Sequence record: PZ445450.1
DNA length: 64,000 bases
DNA from: a phage
Direction: 5' to 3' (one strand)
Positions within the stretch are counted from its first letter, which is position 1, and every line of letters starts with the position of its first letter. The position numbers and the translations under genes are program-made. The notes under the pieces are model-generated. The model searched no databases. It saw only the letters and a list, made by a program, of their open reading frames with translations, and had not been told where the DNA came from. Below, piece by piece: positions 23,302 through 39,781 of this stretch.

Positions 23302-23436
23302 ATGAGAAAGATAATTATTACCATAGGGATCGTGGCGGCAATGTTGGCGATCTTTCCCCTTATGGTTAGGTATGTGCTGATCAGTGTTGTCCTGGTAGTC
23401 AGCGATCTAATGTTATATATTAACTCATTGTTTTAG
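23302..23436 (+). CDS. Small membrane peptide (44 aa)
   Basis: Hydrophobic; directly follows the upstream stop. Confidence 0.35.
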   Translation: MRKIIITIGIVAAMLAIFPLMVRYVLISVVLVVSDLMLYINSLF

Positions 23437-23444
23437 GTGGAATA

Positions 23445-23636
23445 ATGACAGCAGAAGAAGTTAAAAAAGTACTGGCAGTACTACGTTACCATAATCATTG
23501 CAAGGTGAAGAATGATCCTGATTATCTCGATTCATCCCTTGAAGAGGATACACTGCAAGCCATAAGCAACATGCAAGAATTGCTTAAGCGTATGACAGAG
23601 AAAAACCGACCGGACTATATAGGCGAAAAAATATAA
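23445..23636 (+). CDS. Hypothetical protein
   Basis: AGGTGG RBS. Confidence 0.45.
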   Translation: MTAEEVKKVLAVLRYHNHCKVKNDPDYLDSSLEEDTLQAISNMQELLKRMTEKNRPDYIGEKI

Positions 23637-23652
23637 TCTTTATAAACCATAA

Positions 23653-23682
23653 AACAGGGCTTGTAATGGTCCTGTTTTTTGT
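23653..23682 (+). terminator. Rho-independent terminator
   Basis: acagggc-ttgtaatg-gtcctgt followed by tttttt. Confidence 0.6.
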
Positions 23683-23696
23683 TATACTTATTTCAC

Positions 23697-23743
23697 GGCA
23701 GGCACCTGGCGACGGGGGGAGACAATCACCGGGGGTGCCTGTC
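23697..23743 (-). repeat. Conserved 17-nt element, copy 3 (inverted), within a perfect 8-bp inverted repeat
   Basis: caggcacc...ggagacaatcaccggg...ggtgcctg. Confidence 0.55.
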
Positions 23744-23765
23744 ATATAAAAAACTATAAAAACCG

Positions 23766-23794
23766 TTGACACCTGCCAGGCGGTGGGGTAACAT
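23766..23794 (+). promoter_or_regulatory. Sigma70-like promoter
   Basis: TTGACA, 17 nt spacer, TAACAT. Confidence 0.45.
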
Positions 23795-23848
23795 TTATCT
23801 TGAAGGGGCAAAAGTGCTCACACAACAACCAGAAGAGAGGAAAACGCC

Positions 23849-24121
23849 ATGTTAAGCTGGATTAACCAAGAAGTCGAATCACGTTTTAATACTATTTAGG
23901 ATCTCATCGAAAAAGAGGACGGAACATCAAGCCCTTATCTCAATAATCTTGAATTCCATTTCGTGGAAGCGATGAACGCAGAACATGATCACGAAGGTGG
24001 TGCGGACGAGTTCGCTAAAGGGTATGGCTTCAACAATGCCAACGAAATGATCGAGGCGGTTGTACTCCAGGCTGAGGAAGATTATCAATTAAAAACGCTT
24101 GAATTCTGCCGCCGTAAGTAA
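23849..24121 (+). pseudogene. Small ORF interrupted by an in-frame TAG at codon 17 (23897-23899)
   Basis: Strong RBS AGAGAGGAAAA plus ATG; reading frame stays open for 73 codons after the TAG to a TAA at 24119. Confidence 0.4.
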
Positions 24122-24183
24122 TAAGATAATGACACGGGCCAAAAGGCCCACTAATCAGAACCGCACAAAAAGAGAGAAAGAAA

Positions 24184-24402
24184 ATGGCAACCCGTAAAAT
24201 TAAAGTTGTTTGCATTGAATCAACTGGTAGCGCTTTTGTAGTTGGTCAGAAATATAATGCGGTTTTAATGGGTACGGATTGGAAGGTTAAAGGCCTTGAT
24301 GGTTACGAATACGGCACTACTCGGGGATTGCGTGGTCGAATCGGATACGTGAGTTTTGACAACAAAGAAAAATTTGTTTTCGATATTGTTGTGAGTAAAT
24401 AG
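24184..24402 (+). CDS. Hypothetical protein
   Basis: Leader hairpin gggccaaaaggccc; AAAGAGAGAAAG RBS. Confidence 0.5.
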   Translation: MATRKIKVVCIESTGSAFVVGQKYNAVLMGTDWKVKGLDGYEYGTTRGLRGRIGYVSFDNKEKFVFDIVVSK

Positions 24403-24458
24403 CAATTCATGCTATATTATCAACTAATCAAAACGAACCGCATAAAGAGGAAAACATC

Positions 24459-24722
24459 ATGAAACGTCTTGACCAGCTCAAACTAGTTCAGTACATGGCT
24501 TACAGAATTCTTGAAGTCCAAAAAGGTAGCAAAAAAGAAGTTTGCGAGAAAGCGTACAAGATCTTTACTCGCAAAAAAGACGATTGGATGTTACGCCAGA
24601 CCAAAAAAGCCGATATCTTGGGGTACCTGGAAGAAGAGATCCGGCTTGAAGAACAAGAAGAGATCCGCCGTAGTGAGGCAGATTATCAGGCAGCTTGGGA
24701 AAACTGGATGAGCAACAAATAA
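24459..24722 (+). CDS. Hypothetical protein
   Basis: AAAGAGGAAAA RBS; charged, helical composition. Confidence 0.5.
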   Translation: MKRLDQLKLVQYMAYRILEVQKGSKKEVCEKAYKIFTRKKDDWMLRQTKKADILGYLEEEIRLEEQEEIRRSEADYQAAWENWMSNK

Positions 24723-24866: not shown

Positions 24867-25286
24867 ATGAACATTAAATCTGATAATCCGGCATATAGCT
24901 TTGATAACGCTTTTTGTCACGGTCCGGCGGCGAAAGGATTCGAAATCGATGGTAAACTAATTATTGTCAATGTTGACGGGGAAGAGGTTGCAGTATATCC
25001 GGTGGCAGACGTTAAAAGCCGTCTACAATGCCGCATAGATGTTACCGCCTATCAGCTTGATCCGGTCCGGGTAGTTGCCCTGGTCCTGGAAGAAGAAATT
25101 AAAGCAATGCACCACAGCAACAAGTTTATTGGTGACGCTCAAGATAATATGCAGGTATGCCGCTATAAAGTTAATGAAGTGCTTAAAGAGTACGGCTATA
25201 AGGATTTAATGATCAAGCGCGATGAAAAATTCCGCTACCGTAACAACCTGGCAAATCGGATTTTTGAAATATACGAATCATTATAA
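24867..25286 (+). CDS. Hypothetical protein
   Basis: AAGAGGTAAAAA RBS; 139 aa. Confidence 0.55.
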   Translation: MNIKSDNPAYSFDNAFCHGPAAKGFEIDGKLIIVNVDGEEVAVYPVADVKSRLQCRIDVTAYQLDPVRVVALVLEEEIKAMHHSNKFIGDAQDNMQVCRYKVNEVLKEYGYKDLMIKRDEKFRYRNNLANRIFEIYESL

Positions 25287-28173: not shown

Positions 28174-28386
28174 TCATAGTCTACCACCTCTGAACTCTTC
28201 GTGCTCAGGCATAATAGAGAACCAGATATCTACGATGTCTTCCCACGTTAGGTCATCAGCCTCAGGATCTACCTGGAGCGAAGATGGAGAATCTTCAGAA
28301 TTGAAGTTTTCCTCTTGCACTGGCTCAGTCAAGGGACATATAGTCACTCCTTTGGATGTCTCTTCAGACGCATGTGTGGTAGTCAT
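28174..28386 (-). CDS. Hypothetical acidic protein
   Basis: ATGA-coupled to the upstream small peptide. Confidence 0.4.
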   Translation of the reverse strand: MTTTHASEETSKGVTICPLTEPVQEENFNSEDSPSSLQVDPEADDLTWEDIVDIWFSIMPEHEEFRGGRL

Positions 28387-28484
28387 GTTCCACCCGTGAG
28401 TATTCCGGCAACAGCCGCTATGGAAGTAATGATCATCAGGATCACCACTAAAACTTCAGACAATGTTCTCATTGTGTATTCCAT
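28383..28484 (-). CDS. Small TM peptide (33 aa)
   Basis: GGAG RBS; hydrophobic; promoter immediately upstream. Confidence 0.35.
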   Translation of the reverse strand: MEYTMRTLSEVLVVILMIITSIAAVAGILTGGT

Positions 28485-39194: not shown

Positions 39195-39668
39195 CTAGTC
39201 TACCTGAACCCAACCGCCTGATACTTTTTTAAACATTCTTTGGTTATCACTACCTCGGAACGGTTTCTTGGTTGGTAAATCTTTTACATACTTACCGTCA
39301 ATGATGATATCAGCCAGTTTAAGAACATCACTAGAGATATGGTCAAATGTGAACCCAGTATATACAAGAATAGTTTTCTTGTCACCAAATTTTTCCTTAA
39401 TTTTCTCCATCAGGCTAATAATATCTGGCTCATTATAGTATGCTAAGGGTTCTCCACCCAGCAGAGAGATACCGCACACAGACGGGTTATCTAAATCTGA
39501 CAAGATTTTTTGCAAGTCTTCTTCAGTGAACTCCCTCCCCTTATCTTTTGACCAAAATGCCTGATTAAAGCAACCATGGCAAGCGTGTGGGCACCCAGAT
39601 ACCCACAAGGCAGTTCTAATACCTGGCCCTTCGGTGTAAGATATTTCTGTGTATCCGACAATGTTCAT
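39195..39668 (-). CDS. nrdG: Anaerobic ribonucleotide reductase activating protein
   Basis: Radical-SAM cluster CPHACHGC; lies directly downstream of nrdD. Confidence 0.85.
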   Translation of the reverse strand: MNIVGYTEISYTEGPGIRTALWVSGCPHACHGCFNQAFWSKDKGREFTEEDLQKILSDLDNPSVCGISLLGGEPLAYYNEPDIISLMEKIKEKFGDKKTILVYTGFTFDHISSDVLKLADIIIDGKYVKDLPTKKPFRGSDNQRMFKKVSGGWVQVD

Positions 39669-39781
39669 AGATACTCCGCATCACATTTAGGGCAATGCCA
39701 AATAAAATCGTCTAGTGCCTTGCACCAACGAAGATTGCAACTACAGCCGCACTTGCAAATTTTATAAATACCTGATGACAT
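39665..39781 (-). CDS. Cys-rich micro-protein (38 aa, 7 Cys)
   Basis: TAGGAGGTG RBS; CKCGCSC...CPKC; stop overlaps the nrdG start (ATGA). Confidence 0.4.
   Translation of the reverse strand: MSSGIYKICKCGCSCNLRWCKALDDFIWHCPKCDAEYL

Follow-up and report, generated by a model that had tools for sequence, protein, structure and literature searches.

The question raised by this locus is whether a small phage gene with an amber codon close to its start is a broken gene, a gene whose stop is decoded, the source of a shorter internal product, or an intact gene with a wrong base in its sequence record. The window, that is, the whole stretch of 64,000 nucleotides that was analysed, contains an ATG at 23849-23851 opening a frame that meets TAG as codon 17 (23897-23899); past it, 73 more codons follow without a stop up to a TAA at 24119-24121, with a second TAA directly adjoining. 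This arrangement was read directly in the sequence and confirms what the sequence-only reading had described: a ribosome-binding site, the ATG, the amber codon, the 73 codons, the TAA and then a hairpin. An internal ATG had been placed at about 23975; an in-frame ATG does exist, but at 23972, and an in-frame GTG is also found at 23963. The features of the locus are as follows.

23651..23678, plus strand: intrinsic terminator of the preceding unit (terminator scan; fold -16.1 kcal/mol, z -4.4)
23766..23794, plus strand: predicted sigma-70-type early promoter, TTGACA-17 nt-TAACAT (consensus scan, 10 of 12 matches)
23835..23841, plus strand: Shine-Dalgarno sequence GAGAGGA, 8 nt spacing to the ATG, invariant in five aligned phages
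23849..23896, plus strand: codons 1-16 (MLSWINQEVESRFNTI), the sole part expected to be translated (translation; identical to ECP32 residues 1-16)
23897..23899, plus strand: amber codon TAG (codon 17), with the derived base A at 23898 and ancestral TGG (Trp17) by alignment
23900..24121, plus strand: codons 18-90 and TAA, the presumably untranslated but undecayed remainder of the gene (identity to ECP26)
23963..24121, plus strand: internal in-frame ORF, the sole conceivable C-terminal product (ORF list: 52 aa from GTG 23963, 49 aa from ATG 23972)
24136..24149, plus strand: hairpin GGGCC-AAAA-GGCCC between the interrupted gene and the next (fold -10.7 kcal/mol, z -2.8)

The promoter matches the annotated rV5 promoter P168 in position, and the interrupted ORF is the first gene of the transcription unit behind it; it would head its own transcript because the terminator at 23651-23678 ends the preceding unit. 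The hairpin at 24136-24149 is kept in relatives and in metagenome contigs. It was considered as a canonical intrinsic terminator and discarded as such, the T-run being absent. The next gene begins past it, at 24184.

By its matches to deposited genomes the window is assigned to a Vequintavirus, an rV5-like E. coli myophage. The closest deposited record over 23400-24500 is phage vB_EcoM-ECP32, with 99.4-99.5% identity locally, and 173 phage records match this region. Over 24 kb the best relatives are only about 95% identical and the region is, on these alignments, a mosaic. The interrupted ORF is identified by similarity as the ortholog of rV5 gp162/ORF167 (YP_002003664.1), a 90-aa hypothetical protein of phrog_7287; the profile match has an E-value of 3.2e-46 over residues 2-86, and rV5 gp162 aligns with the window at 95.6% identity by tblastn across the stop. 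An uninterrupted CDS of 273 nt is annotated at the corresponding position in ECP32 (QDB73780.1), ECP26 (QDB73596.1), rV5 and EmilHeitz (bas49_0132). In the neighbourhoods of these four phages the gene lies, as in the window, after a P168-type promoter and upstream of an 87-aa and a 139-aa gene. Since relatives annotate an intact 273-nt CDS there and the difference at codon 17 is of a single base, the two open stretches belong to a single interrupted gene and do not adjoin by chance. The family is characterized by an uninterrupted frame of about 90 aa with an invariant Trp17, which the window gene lacks, so that the locus is best described from its alignment as a phrog_7287 member by descent but a disrupted allele.

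No Pfam family scored above threshold for this protein (DUF2218, with E 0.019, fell under its cut-off), PADLOC and PDB sequence searches with it gave no match, and a profile search of 1.8 billion representative proteins returned just nine clusters. By tblastn the protein was identified in 147 phage records: 116 have a Vequintavirus-type copy, in most cases at least 95% identical, and the other 31, from T1-like and other phages, have a diverged one (below 60%), all annotated as hypothetical. The AlphaFold2 model, made from the family alignment, is a confident four-helix structure (pLDDT 88.9, pTM 0.79) with helices at residues 7-24, 29-47, 51-58 and 64-88, and its structural neighbours are generic helical bundles only. 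The product of the gp162 family is thus predicted to be an all-helical early protein. As a separate observation, the gene is also present in 17 records named as Campylobacter phages (host C. jejuni), where its DNA is 95-98% identical to that of E. coli Vequintaviruses; this points to wrong host labels or to contamination of the records with coliphages.

The surroundings of the gene are variable, and comparison of the neighbouring genes depicts a highly mosaic early region. The 72-aa gene just downstream (24184-24402) varies by an indel: ECP32, rV5 and EmilHeitz have it, ECP26 and many others do not, and phAPEC8-like phages share it at about 85-87%. The upstream 63-aa gene (23445-23636) is common to jumbo phages such as PBECO4, at 82-88%. 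Between them lies an intergenic element (23651-23743) formed by the terminator listed above and a strong GC-rich hairpin at 23697-23743 (-24.6 kcal/mol, z -3.8). It gives an isolated match of about 82 nt, at about 78-83% identity, in Phapecoctavirus, Cronobacter, Salmonella and Pectobacterium phages without the flanking genes. No Rfam family was found for it and EmilHeitz annotates a 30-aa CDS across it; the element could represent a mobile terminator or else a module of sRNA type.

The interruption itself comes down to one base. At codon 17 the sole difference between the window and the four aligned relatives (ECP32, ECP26, rV5 and EmilHeitz) is G to A at 23898, which turns TGG (Trp) into TAG. 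Over all 273 nt the ECP26 allele differs at this base only (99.6%), and reading codon 17 as Trp gives a protein 100% identical to the ECP32 one. All 13 close homologs compared have Trp17, and so do all 17 members of a wider set that includes four distant ones (about 35% identity), where it is one of only ten invariant columns; in the predicted model it lies in the middle of helix 1. Full-length orthologs have 90 aa, so the gene does not naturally end at the equivalent point, and the proposal of a nonsense allele gains support from a TGG to TAG transition at an invariant Trp with all orthologs intact.

The TAG allele was found in the window alone. A 61-nt probe gave no exact match among the 116 gene-carrying records. 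A 30-nt megablast probe, designed so that every 28-nt seed word must contain base 23898, gave 84 matching records with G and none with A in 50,697 phage records. Degenerate exact-pattern scans of viral, metagenome and genome contig collections gave no match either. Gene calls of 52 and 49 aa in public assemblies (P0014, P0017 and P0019) are identical to the internal ORFs and were considered as possible copies of the same allele; this was discarded, as they derive from other causes: an N-gap (L005), a TGA stop (L008), a 13-bp deletion (L007) and 5' replacements (L006, L009-L011). L005 reads TGG at codon 17 and its short call is an artefact of the N-gap. A literature search on amber or nonsense alleles or escape mutants of rV5 and the Vequintaviruses found nothing relevant. 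Further lesions after the stop, as expected in a decaying pseudogene, were looked for and not found: the remaining 222 nt are those of ECP26, and therefore the lesion is either very recent or an error.

The most likely reading, judged probable although far from assured, is a recent and real null mutation (Trp17 to stop) of a conserved accessory early gene. A G to A transition at 23898 would have turned the invariant Trp17 codon TGG into amber TAG, ribosomes starting at ATG 23849 would terminate after 16 residues, and the remaining 73 codons would not be translated to a useful extent, making the allele null. With no other lesion in the gene, the change would be recent, and an accessory, non-essential role of the gene would explain why it is tolerated. 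On this account the phage DNA itself would have A at 23898, as the consensus states, no functional product would come from the TAG allele, and the gene would be dispensable under the propagation conditions. Against this, practically every one of the 116 records from cultured Vequintaviruses keeps the gene at full length, which argues for a selectable function and makes a null in an isolate somewhat unexpected.

Exactly the same picture would be given by a single consensus base error, in which the A at 23898 arose in base calling or polishing and the codon in the phage itself is TGG. Such an error is considered a serious possibility, though clearly a less probable one than a real mutation. It would account for a lone substitution on an otherwise identical background, for a TAG that is unique across all collections searched and for the striking of an invariant residue in a gene intact in 116 isolates. 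The local context also fits, as 23898 lies at a T3/G3 homopolymer junction 2 nt upstream of GATC and a second private G to A is found at 23325 in the same G-run/GATC context, where the first G of a G-run running into GATC is changed (atAgggatc versus ttAggatc). A third private G to A, at 25245, adjoins CCWGG. Methylation-linked miscalls, suggested by these three positions, were nevertheless rejected when the 567 private substitutions of the window (called against rV5, ECP32 and SophiaRose) were taken together. These substitutions are not enriched near GATC or CCWGG (0.90-1.07% versus 1.09-1.10%, Fisher p 0.27-1), the G-run/GATC context has two matches at 159 sites where 1.7 are expected (p 0.50), and the spectrum is symmetric, as natural divergence predicts (C to T 124, G to A 110, A to G 105 and T to C 102).

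The state of the other genes also argues against a generally error-prone assembly, since no other conserved gene in the 64 kb has a stop or a frameshift. In a scan for broken genes, the window was compared with the coding-strand ORFs of rV5 that reach 60 aa, 128 in all; 105 are cleanly intact, and start-extension artefacts, alternative frames, mosaic ends or the window edge account for the others. An error-prone assembly was therefore rejected, the interrupted gene being the sole convincing broken gene in the 64 kb relative to rV5. There is no sign of a systematic artefact, although the base may be a one-off error.

Three loci that came up in the same comparison deserve mention. In the ortholog of rV5 gp157 (ORF 162; 28177-28479, minus strand) ATA replaces the annotated GTG start and a stop falls at "codon 8", with a conserved ATG about 30 codons further on; a second nonsense allele was considered here and dismissed, the rV5 start being probably over-extended. 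Between nrdD and nrdG (39665-39781, minus strand) there is a Cys-rich ORF of 38 aa (CxxC...CxxC, zinc-ribbon-like), and rV5 gp109, a 75-aa ORF in a different frame from it, is interrupted in the window; the gp109 annotation is probably spurious. The equivalent of rV5 gp163/ORF168 (23766-23972), which lies in another frame and overlaps the gp162 start, is interrupted by a stop in the window as well, and rV5 ORF 168 is probably not a real gene.

If the A at 23898 is real, the amber codon might still be decoded, giving a full-length protein through a suppressor host, a phage suppressor tRNA or programmed readthrough. The 73 codons downstream of the TAG are perfectly preserved, in keeping with decoding, and the host fields of the matched records include DH5alpha and MG1655. 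The glnV44 (supE44) allele is found in many laboratory strains of E. coli K-12, and K-12 derivatives frequently serve as hosts for growing Vequintaviruses. A very recent mutation would, however, leave the downstream codons just as intact, and Gln, Ser or Tyr in place of an invariant and probably buried Trp may not restore function. The base after the TAG is G, and UAG followed by G is reportedly a comparatively efficient termination context in E. coli (Poole et al. 1995), which speaks against decoding of codon 17.

Stop usage in the window points the same way. Among its 100 conserved genes TAA ends 59, TGA 32 and TAG 9, the last including the adjacent gene at 24184-24402 and nrdG, so that TAG serves here as an ordinary terminator. 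A search for tRNA genes within the 64-kb window found none, and in rV5 no tRNA with a CUA anticodon was found, the anticodons being tgg, cat, tgt, tga, gta and tct together with one odd ARAGORN call. This call (L013, 16221-16319, in the rV5 tRNA cluster) is a seventh, unannotated tRNA-like gene of 99 nt with a four-base anticodon (atcc); it sits between tRNA-Thr and tRNA-Ser and could be a false positive, or else a tRNA that has degenerated. The phage side of the amber-suppressor question thus came out negative for both the window and rV5. Conservation of the stop among orthologs is the defining property of programmed readthrough, and the stop at codon 17 is conserved in no ortholog, which rules out a programmed and selected readthrough signal. 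The programmed stop-codon readthrough offered earlier, and with it a reassignment of amber, was accordingly rejected on three grounds: the unshared stop, the normal terminator role of TAG and the lack of a suppressor tRNA in these sequences. Decoding in any form, host suppression included, is the least probable of the explanations weighed here.

Another explanation maintains that the allele is not null but truncated, with a functional C-terminal fragment of 52 or 49 aa made from GTG 23963 or ATG 23972 and the C-terminal half acting as an independent module. Its evidence comes from elsewhere: several environmental contigs contain C-terminal-only versions of the gene with differing upstream sequence joined at about codon 25-26 (L006 versus L009-L011), the version in L009 lies directly behind its own TTGACA promoter, and P0015 is an unrelated N-terminus fused to the last 42 or so residues. 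Remnants left by deletions would explain these truncated contigs just as well. At the locus itself the internal starts have no usable Shine-Dalgarno sequence (aattccatttcGTG; GGAAG lies just 2 nt before ATG 23972, and GTG 23963 is preceded by aattccatttc), and at 64-73 nt past the stop they are too far for termination-reinitiation coupling. Measured against the compact four-helix model, such a fragment would be left without helix 1 and the greater part of helix 2, at the cost of six of the ten invariant residues (M1, W17, Y30, N33 and E35, with N43 borderline). Internal reinitiation, which had also been put forward, is therefore unlikely to matter, and a functional fragment is very improbable, only marginally less so than decoding.

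The join point in these contigs is an observation in its own right. In L006 (1200-1225), L009 (1165-1225) and L016 (1501-1755), at positions equivalent to about 23922-23925 of the window, two different upstream sequences meet the gene at the same place, which may be a recombination junction or a module boundary inside the gene.

A null allele would be easier to accept if the gene can be lost elsewhere. Among cultured Vequintaviruses it is nearly always present and full length; frequent absence in relatives was considered and rejected, the records without the gene being other genera that share only the neighbouring modules. Disrupted copies were identified in environmental contigs: L008 has TGA at the same Trp17 codon together with an ATG to GTG change of the start, L007 and L015 have out-of-frame deletions of 13 bp and 76 bp, and in L006 and L009-L011 the 5' part is replaced by different upstream sequences. 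That L008 shares codon 17 with the window is unremarkable, because two of the seven transition routes to a stop in the gene fall there. Taken together these disruptions suggest that loss of the gene is tolerated, although the contigs are short, come mostly from low-coverage metagenome or Logan data and may include assembly errors, which weakens them as support for a null allele in the window.

Being scattered and independent, the disruptions hint that loss is sometimes tolerated or even favoured. The null allele would be adaptive if the protein harmed the phage on some hosts, for instance because an abortive-infection or other defence system senses it, and phages would then escape by inactivating the gene. 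This would explain several independent knockouts of an otherwise highly conserved gene, but it is regarded as improbable.

With a recent null mutation as the preferred reading, the appropriate annotation for the locus is that of a disrupted gene of the rV5 gp162 family (a pseudogene or an amber allele). Annotation as a 16-aa gene, as a 52-aa gene or as a recoding event would be wrong for it. The finding matters little beyond annotation; if the allele is real, the phage is a ready-made natural knockout for studying the early protein of this family.

The closest comparison is with the orthologs of rV5 gp162 already named, which share with the window gene the position first behind a P168-type promoter, the length of 273 nt and 95.6-100% protein identity with codon 17 read as Trp. 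These orthologs are uninterrupted, whereas the TAG at codon 17 is present in the window alone. The disrupted environmental alleles (L008, L007, L015, L006 and L009-L011) are alike in carrying independent inactivating lesions in the same small gene, but the lesions are TGA, deletions and 5' replacement, and none is TAG.

The readthrough of Qbeta A1 and the amber-recoded gut phages resemble the window in having an in-frame stop followed by a long, coding-looking open frame. In those systems relatives share the stop or TAG is rare as a terminator across the genome, and many of them encode suppressor tRNAs; here none of these three features was found.

The classical amber mutants of phages T4 and lambda are the nearest in type of lesion, with the same G to A change from TGG to TAG. 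Such am alleles commonly arise by transition from TGG or CAG, and a TGG to TAG allele is expected to be suppressible on supD, supE or supF hosts. The am alleles of the classical collections were obtained after mutagenesis by selecting conditional lethals, and lie in essential genes. In the window there is no evidence of mutagenesis, the spectrum being symmetric and the change single and isolated, and the gene appears to be non-essential, so that a mutant in it would not be recoverable in a conditional-lethal screen; the proposed origin as a laboratory amber mutant is thus left without support.
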